IMG/VR virus record: IMGVR_UViG_3300021255_002251
Direction: 5' to 3' (one strand)
Length of the DNA: 64,000 nt
Origin: a virus
Lineage: Duplodnaviria; Heunggongvirae; Uroviricota; Caudoviricetes
Shown here: piece after piece, positions 32,839 through 52,391 of the stretch
Numbering within the stretch: position 1 is the stretch's first letter
Layout: each line of letters starts with the position of its first letter
Made by a program: the position numbers and the translations under genes
The notes under the pieces: model-generated
What the model was told of the DNA's origin: nothing
Databases searched by the model: none
Seen by the model: only the letters and a program-made list of their open reading frames with translations

Positions 32839-33135
32839 TCATTCTACAACATACCAGTCTTCAGAGAGCATGTCAGTCTGTGAAGCCAGCCAGCCTGTGA
32901 GAACCTTGAAGTCTGTGGTGAACATGCGGATTGAGCCGAGACATTCAATCTCTCCGCCTTTTGATTCAGCGAGCGCTTTCAGATGCGGATCTCTGCACCA
33001 TTCAGCCTTCACGGAAGAGGCTGGAAGAAGCCAGAGTGACATACCTTTGCCATTCCATCCTTCTCGTGCAACTCTCTTCCCTTGCTTCAGAGCACGAATT
33101 GCATCTCCAAAATCCATTAAGTTATTCTCGTTCAT
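32839..33135 (-). CDS. DUF2829 family protein (Tad2-like), copy 1
   Basis: MNENNLMDFGDAIRALKQGKRVAREGWNGKGM..EDWYVVE. The start was chosen at the internal Met of the listed ORF. Confidence 0.6.
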   Translation of the reverse strand: MNENNLMDFGDAIRALKQGKRVAREGWNGKGMSLWLLPASSVKAEWCRDPHLKALAESKGGEIECLGSIRMFTTDFKVLTGWLASQTDMLSEDWYVVE

Positions 33136-33146
33136 GTCCTTCGCTC

Positions 33147-33455
33147 CTATTCCACCACTACCCAGTCTTCGGCCAAAAGGTCGGAGTTTGTAGCAAGCCA
33201 CCCAACCATCAACTTGTTGTCGCGGGTCTTCATTACGAAAGTCCCCAACTTCTCAATTGAGGCATTTCGCCCAAATGCAAATTTTAGGTTTTCGCTCATG
33301 GCATCCATCCTTGGCAGTTTGCAGGACGGTTCTAGCCAGATGTACATGTTGGGATCGAAAGACACGATGTTGCCGTTCCATCCCTTCCTAGTCATCTTCT
33401 TCCCGACCTTGAGCAGTTTCAGGGCTTCAGAAAAGTCCATCGATCTCTCAAACAT
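33147..33455 (-). CDS. DUF2829 family protein (Tad2-like), copy 2
   Basis: MDFSEALKLLKVGKKMTRKGWNGN...EDWVVVE; a paralog of the adjacent gene. Confidence 0.65.
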   Translation of the reverse strand: MFERSMDFSEALKLLKVGKKMTRKGWNGNIVSFDPNMYIWLEPSCKLPRMDAMSENLKFAFGRNASIEKLGTFVMKTRDNKLMVGWLATNSDLLAEDWVVVE

Positions 33456-35555: not shown

Positions 35556-37478
35556 TTAGCGAATAAACATGACAAATTGGTAGAACACTGCTGCCTGATA
35601 GGCTCCTATGTCTAGTCCGCCACCATATGTCCTTGGAGAACCACGTAAATCTTTTGAGTTTAGCATCCAATTATCAATTGGTATCTGCTCTATTAAGCCG
35701 CCAAAACTCAAGTGGCAAGCAGGAGAAGATTTGTCGATTGCATAAGGGTTGCTAGCATCAAGACTCAATGCGAACTTCGGTTTGAAGATTGCTCGATCAT
35801 ACACATAGGTGTTAACCAAAGTCGCATCAACTCCATCCTCTATTCCTGCTATGCTATTTGCTATTTTCAGATATTGGAGGTCTTTCTTGCTTATGTCATA
35901 ATTGAGAGAACCTATATAATCACTGGTAGCATCCCATCCGTTGTTTGTATAATATTCGTACCAGGTCAAGTCGCTACTCACATAATCATTCAAAGAACTC
36001 AAAGAACCAGCAGATAAGGGGGATAGTTGGGCTTCTCGATATTTTGCCTTAAAAGTCATTGGACTAGCACCATCCCATCCCATCGCATAATAATATTCTC
36101 GATATGTTAAAGAGTATGAGGCCGGTTGATATCCATCAGTAATTTGTGCTATGACCATCCGATATACCTTATCCATTTCACCATAATCTATAGTGATTTC
36201 ATATCCATCTGGGTAGCCCTCTGGGTCATAGGATTTATAATAGTTCGTTGTTCCTCTTTCAGGGAAATATCCGTCCCACCCAAATGCTACAAGCCGCTGC
36301 CCTTTTGTCAATGCGATAGTCTTATATGTTCCATTCGTAGCCACTTCCTTATTCACTTTCGTCCCCAATATGCTGTTTCCATAGAACAGGCTATTGGAAA
36401 TGTTCATGTGTGCACTCATCCCAGGACTCCAATTTGCCGGCGGAACAAAAACCCTATACCCGCTATTGCTAACAATTGTAGAGCAAAGAATCTGCGGCAC
36501 AAATCGAGACAATATCACTGAACCGCTCTGATCCATCTCATAACTAAATTCCGCTTGTTTAGATAAATCAAAATCCTCCCCATTTGATATAAGTGAATTC
36601 CGAACATCAAAGAACCCCATGAAGATTACACCATTCGTTGCAGTAATCCGGCCTCTGTCAATCTCGCAATTGTAGAACCTGCTGATATTCGGTTCCCCAA
36701 CATCAGACAATACATATCTATATGCCTTACATTCAGACAGGTCGCTCCCTTTTCTGGCCTTATTCCCCTTGCTAACACTGTCTTCTACATATCCGTTTGC
36801 AATAGCGCCGCCGTTTGTCTGTGCCACATTCCCAGAGAATAGGGAGCTATAGACTCTGCTCCCATTGTAGATAGCTCCGCCATGAGACATGGCTTTGTTC
36901 CCAAAAAACTTGCACCCTACTATAGTAGAAGTGCTGTCAGAAGATTTGAGCGCTGCAATTGCTCCGCCTCTAAAAGCCGTGTTGTTAGTAAATATGCAGT
37001 TGGCAATCCTACATTCGTTTGATGCTAGTCCTAAATATATTCCTCCTCCACTCAATGTATCTTTTGGCTTGTTAGTTGTATTCATGTTATTGATGCAGTT
37101 CCCTCCAATAAGCATCATGCTACTAATCTTGCATCCGGGAGCATTTATGTATATGAGCCTATTCGTAGAACCTACTAATACAACATCTTCCGGTCTCCCA
37201 GTCCTCCCTCTAAGGCTTAGTCCGTTTGTAATATATAAATGTCCAACCCTACTCATGCAAGGTTGCTCATCGAGATGATAAGGCGAACCTACCTCACTTA
37301 CAATTATAGTATCACCCTGCCGTCCAGTAGCAACAGCATCTATTAGTTCTAACACATTGCTAACAGTAATGATGCCAGTATCTCTTCCCCTCAATACTGC
37401 GACAGTAACTGCTGTGCCAGCGGCAAGAGCAGCAACTCCGCCAGCCATCAGTACGGCTCGAACCCATTTCTTCTTCAT
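35556..37478 (-). CDS. signal-peptide protein with right-handed parallel beta-helix (pectate-lyase / Pmp-like repeats); possible depolymerase or surface-binding protein
   Basis: N-terminal MKKKWVRAVLMAGGVAALAAGTAVTVAVL. Repeated GGAI(Y/A) beta-helix rungs: GGGIYLG, RGGAIAA, HGGAIYNG, NGGAIANG. Confidence 0.55.
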   Translation of the reverse strand: MKKKWVRAVLMAGGVAALAAGTAVTVAVLRGRDTGIITVSNVLELIDAVATGRQGDTIIVSEVGSPYHLDEQPCMSRVGHLYITNGLSLRGRTGRPEDVVLVGSTNRLIYINAPGCKISSMMLIGGNCINNMNTTNKPKDTLSGGGIYLGLASNECRIANCIFTNNTAFRGGAIAALKSSDSTSTIVGCKFFGNKAMSHGGAIYNGSRVYSSLFSGNVAQTNGGAIANGYVEDSVSKGNKARKGSDLSECKAYRYVLSDVGEPNISRFYNCEIDRGRITATNGVIFMGFFDVRNSLISNGEDFDLSKQAEFSYEMDQSGSVILSRFVPQILCSTIVSNSGYRVFVPPANWSPGMSAHMNISNSLFYGNSILGTKVNKEVATNGTYKTIALTKGQRLVAFGWDGYFPERGTTNYYKSYDPEGYPDGYEITIDYGEMDKVYRMVIAQITDGYQPASYSLTYREYYYAMGWDGASPMTFKAKYREAQLSPLSAGSLSSLNDYVSSDLTWYEYYTNNGWDATSDYIGSLNYDISKKDLQYLKIANSIAGIEDGVDATLVNTYVYDRAIFKPKFALSLDASNPYAIDKSSPACHLSFGGLIEQIPIDNWMLNSKDLRGSPRTYGGGLDIGAYQAAVFYQFVMFIR

Positions 37479-37527: not shown

Positions 37528-38028
37528 CTAATTATGGTTTGGAAGTTCTTCCACAATAGGGTGCAACTTCAAAATCCTCTGGTTGCTACTCCCACAGAAC
37601 CGTAGCGACAAGTCCTTCTTCTCCTCTACGAAAGGCCCATCTACTACATAGTCTATGTAAGTAAAGATGTCTTTTGCCGTGCCATCATTAAGAAGTTCGT
37701 CGTATGTGTAGCCAGTCCACATCCAAATGTCCTTCTCTGGATACTTCTCCTTTACCTCTTTGCATAGTGATATGACAACTTTGCGGTTGTCTGACAAGAC
37801 AGACATAGGATCACCACCAAGAAGAGATAGCCCCTTGCAATAGGGCTTGTCTAGTTCAGCAAATATTTTCTGCTTCGCCTTGTCGTCAAATGGCTTTCCA
37901 TATTCTGGATTCTGTGCTTCTGGATTGAAGCAGTTCGGACACTTTCTGCCACAACCACTAACAAAGAGGGAGACGCGAAATCCCGTTCCATTGGCGGTAT
38001 CGCACTTGATGATAGAAGCATATCGCAT
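37528..38028 (-). CDS. nrdG: anaerobic ribonucleotide reductase activating protein (radical SAM)
   Basis: SLFVSGCGRKCPNCFN Cys cluster; size and position next to nrdD. Confidence 0.85.
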   Translation of the reverse strand: MRYASIIKCDTANGTGFRVSLFVSGCGRKCPNCFNPEAQNPEYGKPFDDKAKQKIFAELDKPYCKGLSLLGGDPMSVLSDNRKVVISLCKEVKEKYPEKDIWMWTGYTYDELLNDGTAKDIFTYIDYVVDGPFVEEKKDLSLRFCGSSNQRILKLHPIVEELPNHN

Positions 38029-38048: not shown

Positions 38049-40352
38049 TTATGCCTCTACACCAACATGCTTTGCCCTATCTATTGTCTCCGCCTGCTTG
38101 CCAAGATTGAAAGCGGTCTTGAAATCGCCAGTTAGGTATCCCGTGACCCTCCTAAGTCGCTGGATCTTGGCACTCCCGCACCTTGGACATTTCTCACCAA
38201 TGTCTCCCGTGAAACCGCAGTCATCACAAGAGTCATTAGGAACATTTATCGCAAAGTATGGGATATCTTTGTCCATCGCATAGTTTACTACCTCTTCTAG
38301 CGCCTCAATGTTATTCTGCGTCGAAGAATCCATCTCGACATAGGTGATGCACCCAGCGCTAGAATAGCCAGTCAACTGCGATTCTATGTCAATCTTCTCA
38401 AATGGAGTCATCTTGTGCCACACGGGCACGTGAATACTATTCGTGAAGTAATCCCTATCCGACACGTTCGGAATCTCACCGAACTTCGCCTTGAACTTCT
38501 TCATCGCAGTATAGCACAAGTTCTCTGCTGGAGTATAGTAGACTCCAAAGTTCAACTTGTACTCATTCTTGAATGAAGAACACTTGTCCTTGAACAACTG
38601 CTCTATTCTCTTTGCGAGCTTCATTCCTTTTGCTACGGTATGGTCGCATCCGATTAGCAACTGCAATGTCTCCGCCATTCCCAACTGCCCTATGGCGAGA
38701 GTCCCATGCTTCAATGCGGAACGAATCCCCTCTTCTGGCTTGTAGCCGTACATCGTCCCATTCTCATACATGAACCTTGCTGACTTCGGAGACTGCGAAC
38801 ATATCCACTCAAAACGCTCGAGCAGCATATCCTTCGCCTCTGCTATCTTCTTGTCAAGAATCTCAAAGAATATCTCGATGCGCCTCTTCTCTTTCTGTGA
38901 ATCATCCCATTCAATTCCATTCTTCTTTTCTTTTGCGGCTTCGGCATCGGCTTTCTTCTTAGCTTTCATCGCATAAGTAGGAAGTATGCAGGTGACTGGG
39001 CAGATGTTTCCACGACCATCCTTCAACTGCAGCAACTTCGGATTGTCTGCATTGATGTCTGCTAGATTTGCAGTACGGCATCCCATCGTGCTAAAGTATG
39101 TGCATGGGTTGTCTCTATCAAACCCAGCATTTGAACTCCAGTCTACATTCGCATAGTTTGGGTATAACCTCAATGCCGTTGACTTCAAAGCGAGCTTGAA
39201 CAAATCGTAGTTAGGGTCTCCGAATTTACGATTCACGCCCTTCATGCACTGGAAAATCCCGCATGGGAATATCGGTGTCTTGTGGAACTTACCGACACCC
39301 TTAATGCTACCCTCTATGAGGGCCTTTATCACCATTCTCCCTTCTGGAAGTGTACATGTCCCGTAGTTGATGCTTGTGAATGGGAGCTGGCAGCCGCTAC
39401 GCGATTGGAGGGTATTGAGATTGTGATACATACCTTCAACCGCCTGTTCAAGTTCCTTCTGTGTTTGTTTCATGGCATATTCATGAACCCTGCCATTCCA
39501 CATTTCGTATGCTTGACAAAGGATTCCTGAATCTTCTGGAATTTCCTCAAATTTCTTTAGCCAAGATTCTACTGTAGGGTATTGTTTTCTCATCGGTTCA
39601 AGAAAACTAGGATACTCAATCCATTTTATTCCATCAATGAAATGCTTTCTAAATGACTTTCGAACATACGGCACCATCGTCCAGTCAAGATGCGTTGCCG
39701 ACACTCCTCCAAACTGCTGCAAGCTCTGCAACTGAAAGATTACTGCCACCAATTGCATCGCCGTGTTGATAGAGCCTGCAGGACGCACATCGCATTGCCT
39801 TGTGTTGAATCCCTCCGCTAGAAGTTTGTCAAATGGAATGCTCAAGCAGTTGTGCATCCCCACGGCATATGAATCTAAGTCGTGTATGTATATCTCATTG
39901 TTATTGTGATTCCTTGCGGACTTCTTAGACACGATATGCTCTAGCGCATACTTCTTTGCCACAAGAGATAATGTCTCCCCCATCCTACCGCCAAATGAAT
40001 GTTCATCCACATTCGCATTCTGGTTTTGCACATTGCTGGCGGTCAGTTTCTCCATCAGAGCCTTTTCGTTACGAGCCATCTCCCTTTCGTAACGATACTT
40101 GATGTAGTGCTTCGCTACATGGTATGCACCAGCCTCCTGAATCTTGGTTTCTACCATGTTCTGAATGTCTTCAACCGAAAGAGGCTTCTCCTGGGAAACG
40201 GCGAAATGCTCTATCGCTTCCGCTATCGTTTCTATCTTCTCCTTGGTCAGTTGCTCTTCTGCCTTGACGGTCTTGTTTGCCTTTGTGACCGCACTGACAA
40301 TCTTTGCCTTATCGAACGGCATCTCATCGCCGTTTCTCTTGATGATGTTCAT
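38049..40352 (-). CDS. nrdD: anaerobic ribonucleoside-triphosphate reductase (class III)
   Basis: N-terminal ATP cone. C-terminal zinc ribbon CDDCGFTG...CPRCGS. Glycyl-radical motif RVTGYLTG. Confidence 0.9.
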   Translation of the reverse strand: MNIIKRNGDEMPFDKAKIVSAVTKANKTVKAEEQLTKEKIETIAEAIEHFAVSQEKPLSVEDIQNMVETKIQEAGAYHVAKHYIKYRYEREMARNEKALMEKLTASNVQNQNANVDEHSFGGRMGETLSLVAKKYALEHIVSKKSARNHNNNEIYIHDLDSYAVGMHNCLSIPFDKLLAEGFNTRQCDVRPAGSINTAMQLVAVIFQLQSLQQFGGVSATHLDWTMVPYVRKSFRKHFIDGIKWIEYPSFLEPMRKQYPTVESWLKKFEEIPEDSGILCQAYEMWNGRVHEYAMKQTQKELEQAVEGMYHNLNTLQSRSGCQLPFTSINYGTCTLPEGRMVIKALIEGSIKGVGKFHKTPIFPCGIFQCMKGVNRKFGDPNYDLFKLALKSTALRLYPNYANVDWSSNAGFDRDNPCTYFSTMGCRTANLADINADNPKLLQLKDGRGNICPVTCILPTYAMKAKKKADAEAAKEKKNGIEWDDSQKEKRRIEIFFEILDKKIAEAKDMLLERFEWICSQSPKSARFMYENGTMYGYKPEEGIRSALKHGTLAIGQLGMAETLQLLIGCDHTVAKGMKLAKRIEQLFKDKCSSFKNEYKLNFGVYYTPAENLCYTAMKKFKAKFGEIPNVSDRDYFTNSIHVPVWHKMTPFEKIDIESQLTGYSSAGCITYVEMDSSTQNNIEALEEVVNYAMDKDIPYFAINVPNDSCDDCGFTGDIGEKCPRCGSAKIQRLRRVTGYLTGDFKTAFNLGKQAETIDRAKHVGVEA

Positions 40353-40448: not shown

Positions 40449-40736
40449 CTATTCGTTGGAAGGGGCGTCGTCCGCCTTAGATCCGGTCTTGTCGGCAGGA
40501 GCGCTTTCGGTTTCCTTTGCTTTCTCATAGACCGCAACAACGCACTCATTCTGCTTCAGCCCATCAAGGAAATCCTTTGATGGATTTGCACAGTAAATAG
40601 TAATGCGGTGCGTCCACGGCTTGCCGATAGCCTCATCCTGCGCCACAGTATCGGGTGTAGTCGGCTTCTCATCCGCCACGGCTTTCTCCTCTTTGCCGTT
40701 TATGCCATATAGGTAATCAAAGTAATTGTCTGCCAT
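40449..40736 (-). CDS. hypothetical protein
   Basis: 95-aa ORF starting MADNYFDY; shares its first 4 residues with the next gene. Confidence 0.35.
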   Translation of the reverse strand: MADNYFDYLYGINGKEEKAVADEKPTTPDTVAQDEAIGKPWTHRITIYCANPSKDFLDGLKQNECVVAVYEKAKETESAPADKTGSKADDAPSNE

Positions 40737-40762: not shown

Positions 40763-41380
40763 TTAATACCGATTGTCTGGGTTGTCCAAATCAAATCTGC
40801 GAGACAGAGGGATAACCCTACCCTCATTATCTCTGGTTACTTCTGCCCTCTTCATCTGCTTTGCATCGAAAATGCACCACTCTTCTCGCATGTCGCCAGC
40901 CCAGAACACTCCATCCATCTTCAACTTCCCTCCACCTAGGTATGCGGTAAGTCTCGCAGATACCTTTCCGTCATTAGCATGAATGACTGCATCATGCAGG
41001 TCTCTGTCCATAATGAATGGGGCTGTCACATTGATGTAGAAGCCCTGCATCCAATATCCGTATTCTACGGCCTTCCATGCTTCCTCTTCTGCTCCGTAGA
41101 AATAGACTCCCTCTCCAAGCCAACCTGCATCAGACTTGTTCTTTCGGTGAATCTGGTATACCCAGATGTCCCTTTTGTTGTCTCTACGCCATACTACCTT
41201 TTTAGCCCTTGTGTCAGGCATCTTCTGCCTGAAATACTTGTCTAGGAGGGTTGAAGTAGTTTCGTAGTCATGCCTAGCGGCCGCCTCAAGATATGTTATG
41301 TCGTCATCTGTAAGGTCTTTGTAGAACCTCTCGGTTCTTGCTCTCTCATCGAACACGAAACTATAGTAGTTGTCCGCCAT
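40763..41380 (-). CDS. hypothetical protein (205 aa)
   Basis: ORF; no family assigned. Confidence 0.4.
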   Translation of the reverse strand: MADNYYSFVFDERARTERFYKDLTDDDITYLEAAARHDYETTSTLLDKYFRQKMPDTRAKKVVWRRDNKRDIWVYQIHRKNKSDAGWLGEGVYFYGAEEEAWKAVEYGYWMQGFYINVTAPFIMDRDLHDAVIHANDGKVSARLTAYLGGGKLKMDGVFWAGDMREEWCIFDAKQMKRAEVTRDNEGRVIPLSRRFDLDNPDNRY

Positions 41381-41429
41381 ATCCTTTTGCAGCTCCTTGC
41401 CTTGCCAATATTTGCCTTGCAGTGAAACC

Positions 41430-42647
41430 TCATCTTTTGTGCTTCTTTAGCATATACCCAGAGTTTAACATATTCAACAAATAGACAATGATAAGCATAC
41501 TTATGACGGCCTTATACCCTCCGAGATGGCTTCCTACATAAAGTGCCGCCTGATTCCCGACAAGTCCTGCCACTCCCCATGCAGATAGAACCGCTCCGTG
41601 AATCTTAGATATGTCCGACATGCCATAATGGTCTGCCAAAATACCCGGTATGACGGAAAATCCAGCACCATAGCAGGCATTGATGATAAGTAGGGCTATC
41701 CCTATTATCACTGCGCACTTAAGGCTAACCGCCATCGTCAAGAATGAGATAAGAGATATATAAATTAGGATATGCTTCCTAATAGCAAGGCGGTCGCTCC
41801 ACCATGCAAAGAAGAACCTTCCTCCGCCATTCATTAGTCCACATAACCCTATCACAAAGGTGATAGTAGATGCACGATAACCTATGTCAGGGGCATCCAT
41901 CATCTGCTTTGCCAATGGGATTAGACAGAGACCAGCAGAGATGTTAAGAAACATAAAAAGCCAAGACTGCAGAAAGAACCTATCACCTAGCAAGCGAACA
42001 TAAGAGAAAGAACTGATTGCCGAATTAACAATGTCTGCATTATTGGCTGCATCTGGCTTCCGAAGCATCGTAGATGCAATGCCCATCATGACAAGGTAGA
42101 TGACGGCGAAAGCCATCATCACGAAATACATTCCCTTGCTGTCGGTTGCTACATTGAACAAGTCATAAAGTCCTCCGATTCCGCAACACCCTTTGTATAT
42201 AATTGTCGAAAGAGTAGAACCCAACCCAAATGAAATGATTGGGACTGCAGCGGCGATAGCCTTATTGTCTGGGAACCATAGCATCATCGTCTTCACTGGG
42301 GTTATATAGATAACTCCAGTCCCTAGCCCTAGAAGAAAACCATAGCCAAGATAGATAGACCAGAGTGACTTGAAGTATATTCCGGCAGAGGTTACGGCTA
42401 GTCCCATTATGAATAGAGCCATTCCTATCATGGTGGAACGATGAATGTTCTTCTCCACAATCTTACCGAAGAATGCAGCCCCCATCCCCAAAAAGAAAAT
42501 CCCCAATGAGAATGCGAACTGCACCGCCTGCTGCGTCTCACCTATGTAAGATGCTATCTCAGAAGAGAAGTTAGTGAAAGCATAAATCTGCCCGACAGAA
42601 ACGGCGAGCAGAAATGCAGGGAGCACTGAATGAAAGAACCTTTGCAT
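41430..42647 (-). CDS. major facilitator superfamily (MFS) transporter, 12 TM
   Basis: Twelve hydrophobic segments in a 6+6 arrangement; typical MFS length of 405 aa. Confidence 0.7.
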   Translation of the reverse strand: MQRFFHSVLPAFLLAVSVGQIYAFTNFSSEIASYIGETQQAVQFAFSLGIFFLGMGAAFFGKIVEKNIHRSTMIGMALFIMGLAVTSAGIYFKSLWSIYLGYGFLLGLGTGVIYITPVKTMMLWFPDNKAIAAAVPIISFGLGSTLSTIIYKGCCGIGGLYDLFNVATDSKGMYFVMMAFAVIYLVMMGIASTMLRKPDAANNADIVNSAISSFSYVRLLGDRFFLQSWLFMFLNISAGLCLIPLAKQMMDAPDIGYRASTITFVIGLCGLMNGGGRFFFAWWSDRLAIRKHILIYISLISFLTMAVSLKCAVIIGIALLIINACYGAGFSVIPGILADHYGMSDISKIHGAVLSAWGVAGLVGNQAALYVGSHLGGYKAVISMLIIVYLLNMLNSGYMLKKHKR

Positions 42648-42650
42648 AGA

Positions 42651-44507
42651 CTATGCCACCTTTTCAAACTTGTTTATTGGGAACGATCGAATAAGATTCA
42701 CTATGCCCTTTGCCGTTGCAGTATGCAGAACCTTTATCGCATTGACAACAATTGCGACATCTTCCCCATCCTTCCCTATCCTTATGAGAAGCCGTATCAG
42801 ATAGTCATGCCATAGCTGTCTCGCAAAATACAACATCCGTATTTTGTCTGAGACAGTAGAGAAGTCTGACGAGTCGAAGTTAGACATTATCGTTATGAAT
42901 GCCTTGTATTCATCTGTAGACAACGATTCTACGGATTCCCTAATGCTATCAGTCTCACCTTCCTTATAGGACAATATGCTCTTTACAATCTTCCTAGAAG
43001 TGTTGGAACCGATGATTTCGATTGGAATCAATTTGTCCAAGCAAGACTTGATGGTTGCATCACCCTTCTTATTGAGAAGGAAGTTTATCAAAGCCCCTTC
43101 GGTTACAGAAGGAGGGGCATTCACATCGGCGGCATTACCAGCGACAATCGGCTCTATGAGCTGTTCCGCCGATTTGCTCTGGTCTTCCTCTTCTGCCTTC
43201 GTTGTCTTGGCTATCTCACTAGCCAAGGTAGAATACTCTACTCCTAATCGTTTTGCCGCCTCCTTAAGAAGCAATGAACGATGTACCTTGTCTTTGCATT
43301 TCGCTATAGTCTCTAGTACGGCTCTAGTAATCCTCACAGCGGCATTTGTCTCATCTGGATTCTGCTCCGCTGCTCTCGCCGCTCTTATCTGGAACTGAAC
43401 GATAGATTCAGCATTGGAAGCAATGAGGTTTGAAAAGGAGTCCTTCCCATGTTTCAAGATATAGGAATCTGGATCGTCTCCATCTGGAAGGGCCAACACT
43501 CTGATTGGCATACCCTCGGCAAGAAGCAACTGTGCGGCTTTTATCGTTGCCTTGTGCCCTGCTCCATCGTCGTCGAAACATAGAAGGGCATTGTCGGCAA
43601 CCCTATGGAGCATAACGGCATGGTCTTCCGTGAATGCCGTTCCCAATGGAGCAATAGCCGTATTGAACCCATTTGCATGAAGCCGTATGCAATCTATCTG
43701 CCCCTCACATATTATCGCTTCTCTGTTCGGAGCCTTCACGATGTTCTTGCGGGCTTCGTCGAATGCAAAGAATGTTCTTGATTTTTTGAATATCATCGTC
43801 TCTGGCGAGTTGACGTACTTCCCGCTTTTCTTGTCTTCAACCAACTGGCGTCCAGAAAAAGCTACCACCTGCCCATTCTTATCCTTGATTGCGAACACGA
43901 GACGATTTGCGAAATAGAAATATGGTGGACGGATTGCAGAGCCGCTAACCTTTATAATTCCTGCTGCCGCGAGGTCTTTATATGAGTATCCGTGTCTCCC
44001 AGCCCATGCTAGAATTTTATCTACCTCTTTTGGGGCATATCCTATGAGGAACTTGTCAACAATGGTTGCATCTAGTTCCCGCCCCTTAATATATTCTCTA
44101 GCCAGGTCTGCATCTTTGCATCGTGTAGACTTGAGCATCTTGTTAAAGTCTAAGGCCAGCTCCGACATGATTGCATAGAGCCGTTTTCTAGTCTTCACTG
44201 CTGGATTTTCTGCTGCATGAAGTTCTATCCCGACAGATGATGCGAGCTTCCGTATCGCATCTCCAAAAGAAAGCCCCTCCTGCTTCATCACAAAAGAGAA
44301 CACATCTCCACTCTCACCGCAGCCGAAGCAGTGGTATGTGCCACGTGTCACATCTACCTTGAAACTAGGGGTCTTTTCGTTGTGAAATGGGCAGCAGCAC
44401 CAAAGTTCGCTTCCTCTTGGCTTTAAAGAGAATCCATAAGAGGATATGAGGTCGGCTATGTCAACCTTTGCTTTTACCTCTTCCTTCTGTTCTTCTGAAA
44501 TAGCCAT
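42651..44507 (-). CDS. DNA primase (DnaG-like: CHC2 zinc finger plus TOPRIM)
   Basis: CCCPFHNEKTPSF...YHCFGCGESGD zinc-binding domain. TOPRIM ICEGQIDCIRL...LCFDDDGAGHKATIKA. Confidence 0.85.
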   Translation of the reverse strand: MAISEEQKEEVKAKVDIADLISSYGFSLKPRGSELWCCCPFHNEKTPSFKVDVTRGTYHCFGCGESGDVFSFVMKQEGLSFGDAIRKLASSVGIELHAAENPAVKTRKRLYAIMSELALDFNKMLKSTRCKDADLAREYIKGRELDATIVDKFLIGYAPKEVDKILAWAGRHGYSYKDLAAAGIIKVSGSAIRPPYFYFANRLVFAIKDKNGQVVAFSGRQLVEDKKSGKYVNSPETMIFKKSRTFFAFDEARKNIVKAPNREAIICEGQIDCIRLHANGFNTAIAPLGTAFTEDHAVMLHRVADNALLCFDDDGAGHKATIKAAQLLLAEGMPIRVLALPDGDDPDSYILKHGKDSFSNLIASNAESIVQFQIRAARAAEQNPDETNAAVRITRAVLETIAKCKDKVHRSLLLKEAAKRLGVEYSTLASEIAKTTKAEEEDQSKSAEQLIEPIVAGNAADVNAPPSVTEGALINFLLNKKGDATIKSCLDKLIPIEIIGSNTSRKIVKSILSYKEGETDSIRESVESLSTDEYKAFITIMSNFDSSDFSTVSDKIRMLYFARQLWHDYLIRLLIRIGKDGEDVAIVVNAIKVLHTATAKGIVNLIRSFPINKFEKVA

Positions 44508-45355
44508 TACCCCGCCACCTTGTCCTTTCCTGTCGGGAAGGGCTCATTAAACGACATCTCCCTTATGCAGCCTGGGTTCAGTTCTAGCAATTTTATCTTA
44601 TATGCGATATTGTATTCTTCGTTCACTCGGGACACGTTCCACATATTGACTATTGAGTTTTCAAGACTCGTATGTAGCGTGGTGCATCTATGGTCTCCGC
44701 TATGAATGTGTCCGAAAATAACCATTCTTGGAGCTCTCGCATCTATCACCCTAGCTAGGCTATTGCTCCCGAAGTGGCGGCGATATTTAGTAGGATAGTC
44801 TAGACTCATGTCAGCCTCATGATACTTCATTAGAGGCGGAGAATGTGTTATGAGAACATCAACTCTTGCTGGCATCTGCAAGAACCTGTCTGCAAGGTCT
44901 TCATCATCAGCTTCAAAGCACCATCTTCCGTTTATGTATGGCACCCACGGAGTCCCATAGAACCTAATGCCTTTTATCGTCACTTCCTCATCAATCAGAA
45001 GATGGAAGTTCTTTGGAACACGCGAGTATTCTCCTCTCTTGATTGCTTCATACTTGCTAGACAGATAGAAGTCGTGATTGCCAGGAATCGCTACCACTTC
45101 ACAATTTAGTTTCGATATAAGCGGAAAGAACTTGCGCTCAAACCAGTATGGCTTGCTTGTGAAAAGGTCTGCGGGTTCTATGTCACCAGCTATTACAAGT
45201 ATGTCAACATTTCTCGAAAAGCATACTTCTTGTATGCCCTCTACGTGACCATGGATATCGCTAGTTGCAGCGAGTACAAGCGGCTTTCCTATTCTTTCAA
45301 ACATGATCCTTGAATCTCCCCATTGCCAAGTCTCCACCAATCTTAAGACGGGCAA
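44507..45355 (-). CDS. calcineurin-like metallophosphoesterase (second copy)
   Basis: TSDIHGH, GDI, GNHD, GHIHSGDH motifs. Confidence 0.8.
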   Translation of the reverse strand: MPVLRLVETWQWGDSRIMFERIGKPLVLAATSDIHGHVEGIQEVCFSRNVDILVIAGDIEPADLFTSKPYWFERKFFPLISKLNCEVVAIPGNHDFYLSSKYEAIKRGEYSRVPKNFHLLIDEEVTIKGIRFYGTPWVPYINGRWCFEADDEDLADRFLQMPARVDVLITHSPPLMKYHEADMSLDYPTKYRRHFGSNSLARVIDARAPRMVIFGHIHSGDHRCTTLHTSLENSIVNMWNVSRVNEEYNIAYKIKLLELNPGCIREMSFNEPFPTGKDKVAG

Positions 45356-45664: not shown

Positions 45665-45700
45665 ATTATACCACAGAATTGGTATAGCTGTAAAGGGGGG
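45665..45700 (-). promoter_or_regulatory. sigma70-type promoter: GGGGGG, TTTACA (45689-45694), 18 nt, TGTGGTATAAT (45665-45670)
   Basis: Minus strand reads CCCCCCCTTTACAGCTATACCAATTCTGTGGTATAAT. Confidence 0.55.
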
Positions 45701-46440
45701 TGACAATAATTGGACGTTGAATTTTTTAGATGTGAGGCGGTATCCTTCCTATTAGACGAGGCTACCCTTTCGGGTAGCATGGTGGGACTCGAACCCACAT
45801 CTCCGCCTATAAATTGAATCGGCCGCCGTAGGTGCAATTAGACGATAGCAAGCCGAAAAACCATCATCCGTCTCCGAAAAGGAATCAACATATTTATTCA
45901 CCGATTAAAACGGTTGCACCGATGAATGGAAAAAGAAATGGAGCGGGGCTACCGATACGGTTTCGGGTGAGCTCACCCTACCTCCGCAGCCTATGACAGG
46001 GTCGGCTAGTTTTTTTTCCGAATACCGCCTCCCGCTCGGAAACCCCAGAACTCAACACTCTGGATTAAGTGGTAGTCTGGCACCCCACAATGGACACGGG
46101 AGTGTGTGTAGAAAAGGTGTTTTACCATTGTTAAACTATGGGATCGATACTATCTAGCCCCACGGGAGACCTCGAACCTCCATCTCCTTATCTACACGAA
46201 AAAACCTTCTGCCAAGACTCTTGATTCATGTCAATTAATAGTCCATCGCTCACTTGGCAGAAAAAGATTTCGCTAGTCTGCCTAACATCTGCAGCACCAG
46301 AGTAGAGTTGTGTAGACTAGGAGTTTTGCTCTCCGCATCCTAGCGAAAAATGGTAGCGGAAGTGGGAAGTGCGCCCAACGTGCCTTTCGGCTCTGGCTTA
46401 TGAGACCAGTGACTTTGACTTCTAGTCTATTCCGCAATCT
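45701..46440. other. 740-nt ORF-free region with a tRNA-like T-arm (45781-45798), a GCTACCC-GAAA-GGGTAGC hairpin (45761-45778) and a TTCCTATTA motif (45745-45753)
   Basis: No ORF of 60 aa or more on either strand. GGTGGGACTCGAACCCAC is the reverse complement of a canonical T-arm, but no cloverleaf could be completed. Confidence 0.3.
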
Positions 46441-46443
46441 AAA

Positions 46444-46824
46444 TCAACTAAACACTAAAAAGAGACAGTGCATCAACGAAGCGATATGTCCCCTCAATAC
46501 CTTCTCCTGCGACAAGGTTGCATTGTTGTTGTCTTTCTGCACTTCCTTGAACTTGTTCTGAACGCATCTATGAAACACGGGACTTGCGATGCACTCTTCT
46601 ATCGCCTTTGGAGACAGAACCTTTTCCATCCGTTTTCTAAATGCTTCCTTGACCTTATGCTCAAAAACCTCTTCCGTGACATTAACCTTCGAGAAACTAG
46701 ACGGCTTCACAACGGCTGCAGCCGTGTAGTCCTCATCCTCAAGTCCAGGCATGTAAGGCTCATCTGCAAGGAAAAGTTCAAGTTCACTCTTGTCTTCTTT
46801 GTTCGCCATAGCAAAAAATGCCAT
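46444..46824 (-). CDS. hypothetical protein
   Basis: 126-aa ORF. Confidence 0.3.
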   Translation of the reverse strand: MAFFAMANKEDKSELELFLADEPYMPGLEDEDYTAAAVVKPSSFSKVNVTEEVFEHKVKEAFRKRMEKVLSPKAIEECIASPVFHRCVQNKFKEVQKDNNNATLSQEKVLRGHIASLMHCLFLVFS

Positions 46825-46859
46825 AACGGAAATATGGCCACTGGGGAAAGGATTTGAGC

Positions 46860-47845
46860 TCTTCCTTCTCCCTTATTGCCGTGACATTTGCAATGACCGC
46901 CGCATGCGAAGGTTGCCCCCGCTCTAAATCGGGTTACTGTTCGATTTACATGCTTATCGTAGGCTCTTATCCTCCTGCTGCGCTGACAGAGGAAAGGAAG
47001 TTCGCCAATTGTGCTCATGAGCGGAAATCAAGAAATCTTCCGTGCATCCGACTGGACTACCGGCAGGTGCCATGTTTCAGGGCTAGCCAATAGCTACGAG
47101 GACTTCCCCAGTCTATTCCTAGAAGTGCGCTCTCTCCTAGATTATCACATTGATTGTTTCGGAACGGACGCTGGTCTTCTAAACTCGGGCCGAACTGAAA
47201 TGGGTTTTCGCCATGGCAAGTCACCCACTATGGCCGTATTAACAGCCTCGTCATCCAGTCCTATCCGCCAAGGTTTTACTCCCTCTCTGCACGGAAGAAA
47301 AAGGTTAAGTCTATCCCTCTTGCGGAGAGCTTTAGCAGCCGTATTTTCCCGATGCCTCGGTACTGCTACTCACGGTCAAAGACAGTGACAGTGGCCTCTT
47401 TTGGGGTCGCATGATTTCGCCTTTCAAGGCTACCCTTTGGCTATCAGCATCTTTTATGGTTTCCCAATCCTGTGTGCTGACTTAGGAGGTTCTCCGGAAC
47501 CACGAGAGCCCATTCCTTTCCTTTGCCGAGGAGGTCGATGGGAACGACCTAGCAAGGTGAATAAGTCTATGTCAACGAAGATTTTCGCATTAGCTACTCT
47601 ACTCTTCGCCAACTCTTGCCTCATGGGATTCTTTGTGAACACGGACTCCCAATCACCGACATTCCGTAAGACAGACGGAACACCCTTCGCATCCTGGGTT
47701 TACTCCGAGGAAGGATTTTCTTCGCCTCGGTCGATTCACAGTCAAATAGCACATGTCGGGAATCGAACCCAATCAAGCACCGTCGTGCGAGCCCATCGGC
47801 CCCGTGGAACCTACCACGCCTATGTGCTAAAAACTTTCAGTACCT
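46860..47845 (-). other. about 1 kb without credible ORFs; candidate structured RNA region
   Basis: Only short, unsupported ORFs in any frame. Contains a tRNA-like element (47749-47828) and RNase-P-like sequence strings; see findings. Confidence 0.3.
47749..47828 (-). ncRNA. tRNA-like element with canonical acceptor, D and T arms but a non-canonical anticodon region
   Basis: Acceptor GCACATA / CATGTGC, D-arm CGTGG-TAGGTT-CCACG, T-arm TTGGG-TTCGATT-CCCGA. A 31-nt segment replaces the anticodon arm. Confidence 0.3.
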
Positions 47846-47847
47846 TC

Positions 47848-49773
47848 CTACTTCGCAAGCAGGTTGATGAGAGTATCCTTCTCAAGATTCGTGAAGTCAA
47901 TGTCTGGCTTCTCTTCAGAATCCTTGTCCAGAACCTCAAACCCCGCACGATAGAGGATTTCCTTCAGCCCGATGAAGCACTTTGCTTTCTTCTTTAGACC
48001 TTCAATGATGACTGGGGCATACTTGCCGGTTGAAACACGGCGATTGCCAGTCCCCATCTGCATCAAGTAGAAGCGATTATCGAGCATCATACCGATAGTC
48101 ATCTGCCGCCCAGTCTCATCAGCCTCATGTTCCATCATGGTATCAAACCGAATGTTGTTCGGGTCTACCATGTGGTTCTTCATGTGTTTAACATCAAGGC
48201 ACTCATTGGCGAAGAAGAAGCGGAACTTAGACTTAGGCTCACCCCAATACTGGTTCACCATCACAATTCCGTCAGGAGCATCGTTCCTCATGAAGAGGAG
48301 TTCGACAGCCTCTGGATTCGCATTGGTGATGTCACCAGAGTAGATTACAGAGTTGTTGTCTCCGTTCCTATCCCCATTGTACCATGACGAGTTCCATCCG
48401 ATACGATTTCCGCGCAGGTCGGTCATCGAGAGATCGTAGTCCCTCGTTCCCCATTCATTCCGCCAGTAGATACCAACAACGTTGTTCTTCGTCATCCCAA
48501 AAGAAGTCCCGTAGGGGAAGTTCCCAACGAAATTCTTCTCCGATGTCGGAAGGACAAGTTCGTAATGCTCCGGCAGACGCACCTTGCAAGCCTTGACCTT
48601 GATGGACTCACAAAGAGATTCCTCAAGGAGGAAGTAGAGCCTAGCAATCCAGTTCTTGTCGTACTTCGGGGAATACTGCTCACGGACGAACTGCTTACCA
48701 TTCCTGATGGTGAACACACCTGTTGTTGTCGGGAAGCCCATCCGCTCCTTGCATAGCATCATAAGACGAACCTTGCGGAAGTTGTCAAGTTCGCCAAGGC
48801 GCTTCTTGACATCTTCCACCGGCTGCGGTTCCTTAATGATGTTCTCCCAGAACCCAATCTTGAAAGGCTTGTGATTCTTATCCGCAAGACGGCGGAGACG
48901 ATTCACGATTCCAGAGACCTTCCTATCTTTCTTCTCTCCTCCCTTCATGGCGAGGAAGATTGGCTTGAAGCGCAGGAATATACGCGATAGCCGCTCAATC
49001 TGCTTGTCGGAGAGATTGAGAAGAGGAGACCGAAATCCGCTCTCTTCTGCCTTCTTCTTGATTGTCGCAATCGTAGCACGGCTCTTGATGAGCGCAGGCT
49101 TCCCAACGTAAGCAAGTGCAATGCAACGAAGCATGCCGAACTCATCTGCAGGAAGAATGTTCATCTTCTGAGAGAGGTAAGCCATAGCTTCCTTGTTCTT
49201 CACAAGCGAAAGGGCCTCCGACAAATCACTCTTCTTCCAATCAATGCCATGTACTCTGGTCTCATACCAGAAGTCGCACATGACCTTCATCGTGCCCTCC
49301 TTGAGGGCGATGCCTGCCTTGAGAACTTCAAAACACTTGCCAGCCATCTCATCGTTCGTGATAGGCTCAATGACCTTGAGGTCTTCAAAGCGAGGAACCA
49401 TGCCTCCGTCGTTCGGAGTCCATCCGTTACCATCAATCTCCTTCCCATCCAGCATCTTACCGTATGTGGAGGCATAGTGCCTAATCTGGTCGAGGAAAAT
49501 CTCAAACCGAGACTTTGAAATCACATCATTCCACTCCTTGTAGAATGTTGCATTGTAGTTTGCGGTAAGGGTGTCAAGCCACTCATCCACAAACCTGTTG
49601 CAGCATTCCGGGCTGATGATATAGCCCAACTTAACCGCCTTCTTGTTGATTGCGGCAAAGTCACGATTGTCGTTCTTGTCCGATGCGACCAACCCCTTCT
49701 TGAAGTAGTCGATCAGTGCAGTGTGCATTTGCATTGTCGTTTTCCTTTTGGTTGTTTTTGTTGTTTTTAACAT
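47848..49773 (-). CDS. hypothetical protein (641 aa)
   Basis: Long ORF immediately downstream (in transcript order) of the tRNA array. No Walker motifs, so it is not called a terminase. Confidence 0.5.
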   Translation of the reverse strand: MLKTTKTTKRKTTMQMHTALIDYFKKGLVASDKNDNRDFAAINKKAVKLGYIISPECCNRFVDEWLDTLTANYNATFYKEWNDVISKSRFEIFLDQIRHYASTYGKMLDGKEIDGNGWTPNDGGMVPRFEDLKVIEPITNDEMAGKCFEVLKAGIALKEGTMKVMCDFWYETRVHGIDWKKSDLSEALSLVKNKEAMAYLSQKMNILPADEFGMLRCIALAYVGKPALIKSRATIATIKKKAEESGFRSPLLNLSDKQIERLSRIFLRFKPIFLAMKGGEKKDRKVSGIVNRLRRLADKNHKPFKIGFWENIIKEPQPVEDVKKRLGELDNFRKVRLMMLCKERMGFPTTTGVFTIRNGKQFVREQYSPKYDKNWIARLYFLLEESLCESIKVKACKVRLPEHYELVLPTSEKNFVGNFPYGTSFGMTKNNVVGIYWRNEWGTRDYDLSMTDLRGNRIGWNSSWYNGDRNGDNNSVIYSGDITNANPEAVELLFMRNDAPDGIVMVNQYWGEPKSKFRFFFANECLDVKHMKNHMVDPNNIRFDTMMEHEADETGRQMTIGMMLDNRFYLMQMGTGNRRVSTGKYAPVIIEGLKKKAKCFIGLKEILYRAGFEVLDKDSEEKPDIDFTNLEKDTLINLLAK

Positions 49774-50338: not shown

Positions 50339-50568
50339 TTACCAGGCATTAATAGGAACATTCTTTGCCGCAAAAAGAGATTTGTGCGAGTAGTATGGAT
50401 TTCATGGTGGAGGCTTATGCCGCGCCCCCAAGCGGTTAATAGGAACTACCTCTGCACAAAGAAATAAAAAGGGCGGAGAGTATCTTTCATCCAAAGAAAA
50501 ATAGGAACCCTCTTTGCCCAAAAATAGTTTTCAATTCATACGCCCCACTCGAGGGACGACCTAAACGA

Positions 50569-50641
50569 TGAAACCAGATGGACTCGAACCACCTCCTTCC
50601 AACGATTAATTGGAAATGCTTTCCTGTTACACCATGGTTTC
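50569..50641 (-). ncRNA. tRNA-like gene with an unusual anticodon loop (UUAAUCG) and no encoded CCA
   Basis: Acceptor GAAACCA / TGGTTTC pairs 7/7. T-arm GGTGG-TTCGAGT-CCATC. The anticodon stem TCCAA/TTGGA encloses TTAATCG, which has a pyrimidine at position 37; the anticodon assignment is ambiguous. Confidence 0.35.
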
Positions 50642-50867
50642 ACGTGGGAACTTTCCGAGTACCCAAAACTCCTGTTCCTTTGCGATACATGCGGTCTCTG
50701 ATATCTCCCAAGCCGAGCTTCCAGAAACAACTTGTAAACACCCATCGCATGAACAGCCTATCTCTTCAGTGGACCGTCACCGGATTAGCACCGTGCTGCC
50801 AGACCTATCGTTGCATGCTTGATTAGCACCCCTTGTACTTCGGGGCCGAACAGCCTGACTCTAAAGA

Positions 50868-50942
50868 TGGAGCAAGATGCCGAACTCGCATCGGCGTAAA
50901 CTACCTTGGAAGGGTAGCGCATAACTTCTCTGCCAATCTTGC
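50868..50942 (-). tRNA. tRNA-Gly(TCC)
   Basis: Cloverleaf by hand. Acceptor GCAAGAT/ATCTTGC, anticodon arm CTACC-CTTCCAA-GGTAG, T-arm GCCGA-TGCGAGT-TCGGC, CCA encoded. Confidence 0.7.
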
Positions 50943-50947
50943 AAAAA

Positions 50948-51022
50948 TGGAGCGAACTACGGGATTCGAACCCATGACCTCATCCTTGGCAAGGATACGT
51001 ACTACCACTGTACTAAGTCCGC
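50948..51022 (-). tRNA. tRNA-Gly(GCC)
   Basis: Acceptor GCGGACT/AGTTCGC (G4-U69), anticodon loop TTGCCAA, T-arm ATGGG-TTCGAAT-CCCGT, CCA encoded. Confidence 0.8.
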
Positions 51023-51113
51023 ATTTGCCCCTTATCCCACCACTTTCAGCGGGGGCTACCTCGTTTCCTCATATAGACCGACAGAGCGGGACTCCGGCGG
51101 AGAGGCTTCTAAA

Positions 51114-51189
51114 TGGAGCGACAGATGGGTTACGATCCCACGACATCAACCTTGGGAAGGTTGCACTCTACCAACTGAGTTACTGTCGC
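51114..51189 (-). tRNA. tRNA-Gly(CCC)
   Basis: Acceptor GCGACAG/CTGTCGC, anticodon arm CAACC-TTCCCAA-GGTTG, CCA encoded. Confidence 0.8.
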
Positions 51190-51196
51190 ATGAAAT

Positions 51197-51276
51197 TGGT
51201 GGAACCGATGGGAGTCGAACCCACTATTTGTCTGCTTGCAAAGCAGATGCCTTTACCACACTCGAGCCACGGCCCC
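51197..51276 (-). tRNA. tRNA-Ala(TGC)
   Basis: Acceptor GGGGCCG/CGGTTCC with G3-U70, anticodon arm TCTGC-TTTGCAA-GCAGA, CCA encoded. Confidence 0.75.
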
Positions 51277-51587
51277 ATTGAAAATGTTTACCAGCGGTTC
51301 TCAGATGCTTTTAGTTTTGTGGTATCGCATCCACAAACTTCAACCGCAGTCATAGCATCATTAGGCTCTTGGATTCGATAGGCATACATCCCATTCGGGC
51401 ATCGCTACCGTTCATGCCTAAAGTTTGGTTCTGCCTTACACGTTTCCTGCAAGGTGGAATCCAATGGTATGCAGAATTTAGCCTTTTGAGCCTATCTGCG
51501 TCTCGCCGCAATGTGAAATCCATCACTACAATGAGGAGCGACATCAAGGTCGGGACTCTTGTTGTTTGAACTAATACCATCAGAAAT

Positions 51588-51661
51588 TGGTGGACACGTT
51601 GAGAATCGAACTCAAGTCTTCTCGTTGCGAACGAGATGTTCTACCACTGAACTAGCGGCCC
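51588..51661 (-). tRNA. tRNA-Ala(CGC)-like; acceptor stem imperfect
   Basis: D-arm, anticodon arm TCTCG-TTCGCAA-CGAGA and T-arm TTGAG-TTCGATT-CTCAA are canonical. G3-U70 is present, but the 5' GGGCCGC versus 3' CGTGTCC strands leave three mismatches at positions 5-7. Confidence 0.45.
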
Positions 51662-51804
51662 ATGAAAATAAAGGACGATTGTCAAGAAGGACATCGTATT
51701 TCCATTAATGCCCATCACGTTTTCTTTCCCCAACTATTCACCCCAACGAAATCATTGGAATTGGGAAATGATAAACACTGATTTTGTCACAACCGCCATG
51801 GAAA

Positions 51805-51878
51805 TGGTGGACACGGCAGGAATTGAACCTGCATCTCTTCTCTGCCAGAGAAGCATTCTACCGTTGAACTATCGGCCC
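51805..51878 (-). tRNA. tRNA-Ala(GGC)-like; acceptor stem imperfect
   Basis: Anticodon arm CTTCT-CTGGCAG-AGAAG, T-arm GCAGG-TTCAATT-CCTGC, G3-U70 present. 5' GGGCCGA versus 3' CGTGTCC gives the same mismatch pattern as the Ala(CGC) gene. Confidence 0.45.
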
Positions 51879-51891
51879 ATTGAAATCGTTT

Positions 51892-51968
51892 TGGTGGACC
51901 CTGTAGGGAACGATCCTACAACCGTCTGGGTATGGGCCAGATGCTCTAACCAATTGAGCTAAGGGTCC
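51892..51968 (-). tRNA. tRNA-Met/Ile2(CAT), elongator type
   Basis: Acceptor GGACCCT/AGGGTCC (G1-C72 paired), anticodon loop CCCATAC, CCA encoded. Confidence 0.8.
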
Positions 51969-51973
51969 GAAAT

Positions 51974-52051: not shown

Positions 52052-52056
52052 CTTGA

Positions 52057-52128: not shown

Positions 52129-52131
52129 GTC

Positions 52132-52206: not shown

Positions 52207-52214
52207 AAGTCTCA

Positions 52215-52302: not shown

Positions 52303-52307
52303 AAAAT

Positions 52308-52382: not shown

Positions 52383-52391
52383 TCTTTGAAA

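Follow-up and report, generated by a model that had tools for sequence, protein, structure and literature searches.

A predicted SfMCT/OFA-like carboxylate transporter carried as an accessory gene by a group of herbivore-gut jumbo phages

Introduction

Several large phages carry a host-derived membrane or uptake component that supports metabolism. PstS, for example, is reportedly carried by cyanophages. Another such component is PnuC, the nicotinamide riboside transporter present in gut NAD-jumbo phages (PMC11662467). The gene described here lies on the minus strand at positions 41,430–42,647 of a 64,000-nucleotide stretch of Caudoviricetes DNA (IMG/VR record IMGVR_UViG_3300021255_002251; the whole stretch is hereafter called the window), and encodes a putative secondary transporter of the SLC16/SfMCT–OFA branch of the major facilitator superfamily (MFS). 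It resembles PnuC and PstS in being an apparently host-derived membrane component of a large phage, and relatives of this phage carry NAD-salvage genes, but the protein belongs to another family and its predicted substrate to another class. Transporters of the same fold are also carried by Orpheovirus, Bodo saltans virus, Klosneuvirinae and Pandoravirus; however, these are giant viruses of eukaryotes, and their MFS proteins share only 10–14% identity with the window protein and fall into unrelated subfamilies.

The two characterised proteins closest to the window protein are bacterial carboxylate transporters. SfMCT is the L-lactate/H+ symporter of Syntrophobacter fumaroxidans, a bacterial SLC16 homologue (PDB 6g9x, 6hcl; NF049980), and has the same MFS fold of 12 transmembrane (TM) helices. 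OxlT is the oxalate:formate antiporter of Oxalobacter formigenes (OFA family, TC 2.A.1.11; PDB 8hpj, 8hpk), whose fold is shared at a TM-score of 0.79. The window protein resembles SfMCT in its TM4 Tyr, its TM8 Asn-x3-Arg carboxylate clamp and its TM10 Tyr and Phe, and resembles OxlT in the TM8 Arg. Nevertheless, it has about 22% identity to SfMCT, scores well below the family cut-offs of both proteins, and differs from each at residues involved in proton or substrate binding. An earlier sequence-only reading of the window had proposed that the gene is either an auxiliary metabolic gene (AMG), for nutrient or nucleoside uptake during infection, or a toxin/antitoxin-like element.

Results

A 12-helix permease related to carboxylate transporters

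The open reading frame (ORF) at 41,430–42,647 starts with ATG and encodes 405 amino acids. Residues 14–364 match Pfam PF07690 (MFS_1) with 61 bits against a gathering score of 33.4 (E=1.2e-16). The AlphaFold2 model, built from a 28-sequence alignment (predicted local distance difference test score 82.9, predicted TM-score 0.81), contains 12 long helices in 6+6 bundles with a low-confidence central loop (residues 195–222), and a hydropathy scan agrees with this layout. When compared with solved MFS structures, the model gives TM-scores of 0.74–0.79. Motif-A-like charged loops are present between TM2 and TM3 (G61-K-I-V-E65) and between TM8 and TM9 (W-S-D285-R-L-A-I-R290), and an alignment of 121 sequences shows no variation at the gating residues E65, D285 and R290. 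The 12-TM, 405-residue permease of the sequence-only reading is thus confirmed by the MFS_1 score, the model and the hydropathy profile.

Among NCBIfam models, the SfMCT L-lactate equivalog NF049980 ranks first (181 bits, cut-off 320), followed by the OFA subfamily TIGR00890 (106.1 bits, cut-off 374.85) and OxlT TIGR04259 (73.6 bits, cut-off 335). The same ranking, SfMCT over OFA over OxlT, was obtained for all 28 members tested, including the cellular ones. This common ranking and the sub-cut-off scores of every tested member therefore define a distinct, uncharacterised subfamily; as the scores lie below the curated SfMCT, OxlT and OFA cut-offs, the window protein is assigned only as a putative MFS transporter, SfMCT/OFA-like. 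Source annotations of its cellular homologs read 'OFA family oxalate/formate antiporter-like'. A PDB sequence search returned only SfMCT (E=4.6e-16) and OxlT (E=3e-9), and Foldseek placed SfMCT entries first (TM-score 0.75), then OxlT, and then FLVCR1 and human MCT1. Sequence families and fold search both point to carboxylate transporters, which speaks against the nucleoside uptake proposed earlier. A nucleoside-permease assignment was also tried directly and rejected: Pfam and NCBIfam gave no match to such a family at an E-value of 0.01 or better, and the only matches were MFS_1, SfMCT, OFA and OxlT.

A predicted pocket shared by phage and cellular proteins

Pocket residues were mapped by sequence alignment to SfMCT and OxlT. 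Mutagenesis has shown the importance of Y119, N276, R280, Y331 and F335 in SfMCT (PMC6573034), and the corresponding positions in the window protein are as follows.

SfMCT Y119 (TM4): Y114, conserved
SfMCT N276 (TM8): N273, conserved
SfMCT R280 (TM8): R277, conserved
SfMCT Y331 (TM10): Y326, conserved
SfMCT F335 (TM10): F330, conserved
SfMCT L145: F140, differs
SfMCT F359: L354, differs
SfMCT C362: W357, differs
SfMCT proton site H250, R256, D257: P244, A252, P253, not conserved
OxlT K355 (second carboxylate of oxalate): W357, not conserved; W is invariant in 121 sequences
Predicted pocket residues of the window protein: I21, Y114, I137, F140, N273, R277, Y326, F330, L354, W357

R277 also aligns with OxlT R272. 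By contrast, the position of OxlT K355 is occupied by Trp, so the protein has no oxalate-type dicarboxylate site. The machinery for one carboxylate is kept and the second basic residue of OxlT is absent; a monocarboxylate is therefore the best guess for the substrate, and the predicted site would fit the monocarboxylate type better than the oxalate type. The positions matching SfMCT R256 and D257 vary across the alignment.

All ten mapped pocket positions are invariant across the 121 sequences, which comprise 15 phage sequences of clade A (the syntenic group of the window), 8 of phage clades B and C, and 98 others (cellular). At the 218 columns with conservation of 95% or more in the cellular set, the phage residues agree with the cellular consensus in 92% of cases, and the lineage-specific exceptions are conservative (e.g., S to T, V to I, A to G). 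Phage proteins are 401–433 residues long, compared with a cellular median of 416, and no domain or extension is peculiar to them. The cellular function appears to be retained in the phage copy, with no sign of a new one.

Cellular homologs and the origin of the phage copies

A scan of cellular genomes, with one genome per species, returned 101 relatives, of which the best 80 are described here. These 80 have 55–68% identity to the window protein and come from metagenome-assembled genomes (MAGs) labelled Kiritimatiellae/Kiritimatiellia, Lentisphaerae/Lentisphaeria, Victivallales, 'Verrucomicrobia' or 'uncultured bacterium'; the named sources are gut compartments of goat, sheep, cattle, yak, buffalo and roe deer, or horse faeces. 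Apart from two weak matches, the 80 loci share no other gene with the window, and they are therefore regarded as cellular. In a neighbour-joining (NJ) distance tree with 200 bootstraps, for which the most distant Victivallales sequences served as root, the phage clade is nested within the Kiritimatiellia/Lentisphaerota diversity. Bootstrap support was 89% for clade A, 100% for clade B, 97% for B and C together, and 84% for all phage sequences. The substitution A267G is common to both phage clades, and the simplest reading of the tree and of this substitution would be one old capture from cell to phage.

The host is probably a Kiritimatiellia or Lentisphaerota bacterium. A search with NrdD, encoded downstream of the transporter, gave only one MAG label bearing on the host, 'Bacteroidales'. 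Shine-Dalgarno (SD)-like motifs precede 66–71% of the window genes, compared with a background of 14–22%. SD sites are scarce in Bacteroidota, and the heavy SD usage in the window argues against a host of that phylum.

The surroundings of the cellular genes were searched for clues to the substrate. In one Kiritimatiellae species the gene lies in the order B12-radical-SAM protein, two-subunit fumarase/tartrate dehydratase, MFS, 5-formyl-tetrahydrofolate cyclo-ligase; this context was rejected as a clue, as a tblastn comparison with the 80 cellular loci showed that these neighbours are confined to the one species. Clustering of all ORFs found no neighbour family in more than 8 of the 80 loci.

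Residence in the replication block of the phage

The transporter gene lies more than 20 kb from both ends of the window and is flanked by phage genes. The block to which it belongs contains the following features.

45665..45694, minus strand: sigma-70-like promoter match TTTACA-18-TATAAT with TG (11/12), upstream of orf111, metallophosphoesterase, primase and MFS; a consensus match only
44507..45355, minus strand: calcineurin-like metallophosphoesterase, which precedes the primase in every relative
42651..44507, minus strand: DnaG-type primase of 618 aa with Zn-ribbon (CHC2), DNAG_N and Toprim domains, directly upstream of MFS
42656..42662, minus strand: Shine-Dalgarno-like AAGGTGG, within the 3'-terminal part of the primase gene and 8 nt ahead of the ATG of MFS, read from the sequence
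41430..42647, minus strand: MFS permease gene of the SfMCT/OFA-like carboxylate-transporter type, 405 aa, 12 TM
41381..41429, minus strand: MFS–p205 spacer of 49 nt, GGTTTCACTGCAAGGCAAA..., homologous to the primase–p205 spacer of L103, a relative that lacks MFS
40763..41380, minus strand: p205, 205 aa, downstream of MFS; a phage core gene with a weak ART-PolyVal-like domain
40449..40736, minus strand: p95, a small conserved ORF between p205 and NrdD
38049..40352, minus strand: NrdD, class III ribonucleotide reductase with formate-type markers
37528..38028, minus strand: NrdG activase (radical SAM, Fer4_12)

'Replication gene cluster' is a fair name for the seven genes from metallophosphoesterase to NrdG, and the placement of the transporter within it, on the same strand and tightly spaced, stands as first described (3 nt to the primase, 49 nt to p205). 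The primase stop TAG is followed by TCT and then by the ATG of the transporter gene; this spacing and the SD site imply probable co-transcription, and translation may be coupled. The true start of the metallophosphoesterase is probably an internal ATG, as its relatives have 250–266 aa. A promoter and terminator scan of the region gave a site count not above chance, and Rfam, run on the window, detected tRNAs only and no riboswitch near the MFS gene. Upstream of the block, about 2.2 kb (approximately 45700–47850) contain no minus-strand ORF longer than 126 aa and no Rfam match, and this interval ends at the promoter-like site 45694–45665.

Checking synteny in related phages had been recommended in the sequence-only reading, and the same junctions were found in at least five independent assemblies. 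The order metallophosphoesterase, primase, MFS, an ORF of about 205 aa, an ORF of about 95 aa, NrdD and NrdG is common to contigs L001, L003, L004, L013 and L015 (for NrdD and NrdG, as far as the contig reaches). L003 (133 kb), L004 (35 kb), L013 (18 kb) and L015 (6 kb) come from other samples and carry MFS proteins 69–76% identical to that of the window. In these four contigs, identity to the window is 75, 76, 69 and 69% for MFS and 72, 72, 66 and 64% for the primase, respectively; this parallel shows that the transporter gene was inherited together with its neighbours. The ORF is intact in all relatives, and dN/dS is 0.137 for the window against L001 (dS 0.15), the only pair that is unsaturated at synonymous sites. 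GC content (0.447) and third-position GC content (0.485) match the phage background, whereas cellular homologs average 0.584 and 0.80; low-GC cellular members also exist, e.g., L016 at 46%. The gene is neither an assembly chimera nor a recent passenger. Tight spacing had been offered as the reason for doubting a chimera: the conclusion holds, but spacing by itself is a weak argument, and it is the synteny in independent assemblies, the phage-like composition and the purifying selection that carry it.

Presence, absence and genome position of the transporter gene

Copies of the gene outside the syntenic group lie in other surroundings. Clade B copies (62–63% identity, on contigs of 228–292 kb) have an AAA_23 protein and a small ORF on one side and unknown genes on the other, with dUTPase, metallophosphoesterases and a D12 methylase nearby. 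The clade C copy comes after an RNA ligase; NAD-salvage genes and a terminase containing an intein are encoded on the same contig. The phages of these two clades are distant relatives of that in the window (metallophosphoesterase 47% and RNA ligase 53% identical). Since the surroundings differ among clades A, B and C, the captured gene occupies three genome positions.

Two closer relatives lack the gene at the position it has in the window. L098/L099 (255 kb) has the primase, a 103-nt gap, p205, an 81-aa ORF and NrdDG, and L103 (285 kb) has the primase, a 50-nt gap, p205, a 99-aa ORF and NrdDG. A tblastn search for an MFS remnant in the examined stretches of these contigs found none. The primase–p205 spacer of L103 (GGTTTCACTTCTAGGCAAA...) is homologous to the MFS–p205 spacer of the window (GGTTTCACTGCAAGGCAAA...), which would mark the downstream edge of a clean, cassette-like indel. 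With respect to the window, L103 (primase 70%, NrdD 87%) is nearer than the MFS-bearing L013 and L015, and it is nested among phages that carry MFS; secondary loss is the simplest account of its lack of the gene. L098 is close to the window in NrdD (91%), NrdG (90%) and metallophosphoesterase (77%), and less so in primase (57%) and p205 (72%), implying that L098 is a strong mosaic with module exchange inside the replication block. Judged from gene content and flanking sequence, the transporter gene is a clean, cassette-like presence/absence polymorphism and hence accessory.

Several side observations were made on the related contigs. L014 and L101 contain NAD-salvage genes (NAD synthase, NMNAT-like, NAPRTase and isochorismatase/nicotinamidase), and these connect the group with the 'NAD-jumbo phages' of the literature. 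In L014, the large terminase (2090–3790) has an intein-splicing match, and L101 carries an IS605 OrfB/TnpB-like gene.

p205 is not a partner of the transporter

The downstream neighbour p205 has no Pfam, PHROG or NCBIfam match at default thresholds. Its ART-PolyVal match is sub-threshold (E=0.088 for the window protein and 3e-6 for its homolog P0152; cut-off 31.2 bits). It is the most conserved gene of the block, with 82–91% identity compared with 64–72% for the primase, and forms 61 homolog clusters, several of them on contigs longer than 200 kb. p205 occurs without MFS in L098 and L103, apart from it in L100, and approximately 10 kb from it in a clade B phage; conversely, MFS occurs without an adjoining p205 in L009–L012 and L014. 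p205 thus belongs to the phage core, and a functional partnership with the transporter was rejected, since its ART-PolyVal-like match is weak and other lineages show no linkage to MFS. A toxin–antitoxin module was likewise rejected, since the 405-aa transporter has no dedicated small partner gene and since p205 and MFS occur separately. The earlier suggestion of a toxin/antitoxin-like element is unsupported: the gene is a full-length copy of a stand-alone cellular transporter with an unchanged pocket, next to a core gene that lies away from it elsewhere. As a separate observation, p205 and p95 both start with MADNY(Y/F).

The downstream ribonucleotide reductase

NrdD, two genes downstream of the transporter, was compared with subtype markers taken from PMC4493059 and PMC11226230. 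It carries those of the formate type: a first-strand Cys (MHNC), an MGCR finger loop with its Met partner and the RVTGYL glycyl-radical motif, and it has Asn in GRGN where thioredoxin-type enzymes carry a third Cys. Its nearest solved relatives are the NrdD proteins of P. copri (E=2.8e-110, the best) and T4, and the P. copri enzyme requires formate (PMC11226230). In the window motif GRGNICPVTC, Cys residues follow the diagnostic Asn at two and five residues. Several NrdD relatives (P0188, P0205, P0210, P0213, P0221, P0229, P0231 and P0297) have 1037–1072 aa, some with a GIY-YIG match (PF01541), pointing to inserted elements, e.g., inteins or homing endonucleases.

Other features of the window

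Nearly all long ORFs of the window are on the minus strand, and phage genes include portal, RecT, YqaJ/RecE exonuclease, RNA ligase, HNH/RRXRR endonuclease, D12 methylase and NrdD/NrdG. ARAGORN identified a block of 15 tRNA genes, with Rfam in agreement; in this array (50567–52627, minus strand) Rfam adds one tRNA at 51808–51878 and omits the ARAGORN tRNA-Ile(AAT) at 50567–50642. An MFS protein with 96% identity is encoded on a 251,769-bp IMG/VR contig, and a protein 100% identical to the window NrdD on a 271,425-bp contig; the phage is therefore a jumbo phage, with a genome of roughly 250–270 kb. A megablast search of the window against GenBank phages found nothing similar at the DNA level.

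Additional genes were recorded as side observations. A 542-aa SPFH/Band-7 and flotillin-like protein (31169–32797, minus strand) is kept across this jumbo-phage group and, together with the MFS protein, suggests an investment of the phage in the host membrane. Tandem Tad2-like genes (anti-Thoeris, PF11195) at 32839–33201 and 33147–33455 (minus strand; E=1.5e-22 and 1.4e-19) lie between the RNA ligase gene and the SPFH/flotillin-like gene, and a Tad2-like gene also stands beside the flotillin gene in the relatives L003, L013 and L103. Two adjacent giant ORFs (9639–13739 and 13736–17833, minus strand) encode a 1366-aa protein with BspA-type LRR_5 repeats and a 1365-aa protein with a CBM5/12 domain, respectively, and a 640-aa protein (35556–37478, minus strand) has a Chlamydia-PMP-type repeat; all three may be host-recognition or surface proteins.

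Discussion

The reading favoured here, to which we give a probability of about 0.7, is that the gene encodes a working carboxylate transporter kept by the phage as an AMG. The auxiliary status put forward in the sequence-only reading finds support in the nested cellular origin, the phage residence, the purifying selection and the accessory distribution of the gene. It fits the established pattern of host-derived transporter AMGs and introduces no new principle; its transporter type is one for which no earlier report in phages was found. Among named matches in the BFVD structure library with an E-value of 0.001 or better, none came from a phage, a tblastn search of 50,697 GenBank phage records gave one weak partial match (15% coverage), and scans of IMG/VR with the single MFS protein and with the alignment matched only the same phage. 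PHROGs returned a weak match to the unannotated phrog_2034 (E=4.5e-5), and the papers searched contained no earlier description of a carboxylate-type MFS protein in phages.

Several points weigh against this reading. All 28 tested members score far below the SfMCT equivalog cut-off of 320 bits (best E 6.6e-58), and the subfamily has no characterised member, cellular or phage. The pocket differs from that of SfMCT at L145, F359 and C362, and the proton site H250, R256 and D257 is not conserved. The cellular genes stand alone, with no conserved neighbours that hint at a substrate. Two close relatives of the phage lack the gene, so any benefit is conditional. The monophyly of the phage sequences comes from NJ distances only, and long-branch attraction is possible. 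Finally, the host assignment is inferred, and one p205 homolog is labelled 'Prevotella sp.' and one NrdD homolog 'Bacteroidales' in NCBI MAGs, although these labels are probably binning artefacts (phage contigs in wrong MAGs).

Among the rival explanations, the most probable is that the protein imports extracellular formate, or another small reducing carboxylate, and thereby fuels the phage NrdD two genes downstream, which would consume formate stoichiometrically as the reductant for deoxynucleotide synthesis. The formate-type markers of this NrdD, the formate requirement of its nearest solved relative in P. copri, the position of the transporter within the broad oxalate/formate-antiporter branch, and the single co-oriented block of MFS and NrdDG in clade A are all in keeping with this idea. 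Nevertheless, L098 and L103, whose NrdD proteins are 91% and 87% identical to that of the window, keep NrdDG without MFS, and in clades B and C the transporter gene adjoins an AAA_23 protein or RNA ligase gene, with no NrdD within the examined flanks of 6–10 kb. Furthermore, the nearest characterised relative is a lactate transporter, the pocket is lined by large aromatic and aliphatic residues like that of SfMCT, and the cellular orthologs have no linkage to formate metabolism. Formate import is therefore considered unlikely. If it were true, DNA synthesis of a rumen jumbo phage would draw on the external formate pool that is also used by methanogens, and the pairing of transporter and enzyme would be one not described for any virus.

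A role other than transport, such as superinfection exclusion, receptor masking or membrane perturbation, with the transporter ancestry incidental, is slightly less probable again. Close relatives manage without the gene, which would be usual for an exclusion or moron gene, and the phage encodes other membrane-associated proteins, e.g., the SPFH/flotillin-like protein at 31169–32797. However, the substrate-site residues, together with E65, D285 and R290, are invariant over about 50% divergence, from the phage clades to cells; such invariance of pocket and gating residues would hardly be expected without selection on transport itself, and no phage-specific domain or extension has been added. 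Uptake of nucleosides or nucleobases to feed replication is very improbable: its sole support is the position among replication and nucleotide-metabolism genes, whereas no nucleoside transporter is found among the 50 listed structure matches and the carboxylate-binding Arg/Asn/Tyr set is conserved. Hardly any credence is left for an artefact or passenger (a chimera, host contamination, a decaying recent host gene or a toxin–antitoxin-like element). Nothing but the rarity of MFS genes in phages favours it, and against it stand the junctions shared by five or more independent assemblies of different samples, the phage-like composition, the intact ORFs, the dN/dS of about 0.14, the divergence in step with the primase and the lack of a small partner gene specific to MFS.

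On the favoured reading of a carboxylate transporter, an ancestor of the herbivore-gut jumbo-phage group would have taken the stand-alone gene from Kiritimatiellia/Lentisphaerota-type bacteria, its probable hosts. The gene probably shares a transcript with the primase and nucleotide-metabolism genes, and its product is probably inserted into the host inner membrane, where it would supplement the host protein or stand in for it and carry out the same transport. Judging from the pocket alignment, it most likely moves one small monocarboxylate, e.g., lactate or a comparable acid product of fermentation. Such acids could thus still be exported, or external acid taken up, while a genome of about 250–270 kb is replicated; capacity for this one carboxylate would be raised or preserved over a long infection. 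In a fermenting anaerobe, export of acid end-products would relieve the build-up of acid and anions; uptake of an external acid is equally possible. According to the classical idea of energy recycling, lactate efflux could add to the proton-motive force. For this general account, in which a host-derived accessory transporter of a small carboxylate plays the proposed role in the infected cell, the odds are judged to be somewhat better than even.

Phage-borne transporters form a small class of auxiliary genes, and they reveal host bottlenecks that a virus must relieve. In a group of herbivore-gut jumbo phages, a carboxylate-type MFS protein has been retained with an unchanged predicted binding site, and its gene has been relocated in the genome and sometimes lost. 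This history points to membrane traffic of organic acids as a conditional limit on the replication of large phages in anaerobic fermenters. The transporter also provides a clue to the host (Kiritimatiellia/Lentisphaerota) of an uncultured jumbo-phage group, and draws attention to a transporter subfamily, abundant and so far entirely uncharacterised, in rumen bacteria of the Planctomycetes–Verrucomicrobia–Chlamydiae group.

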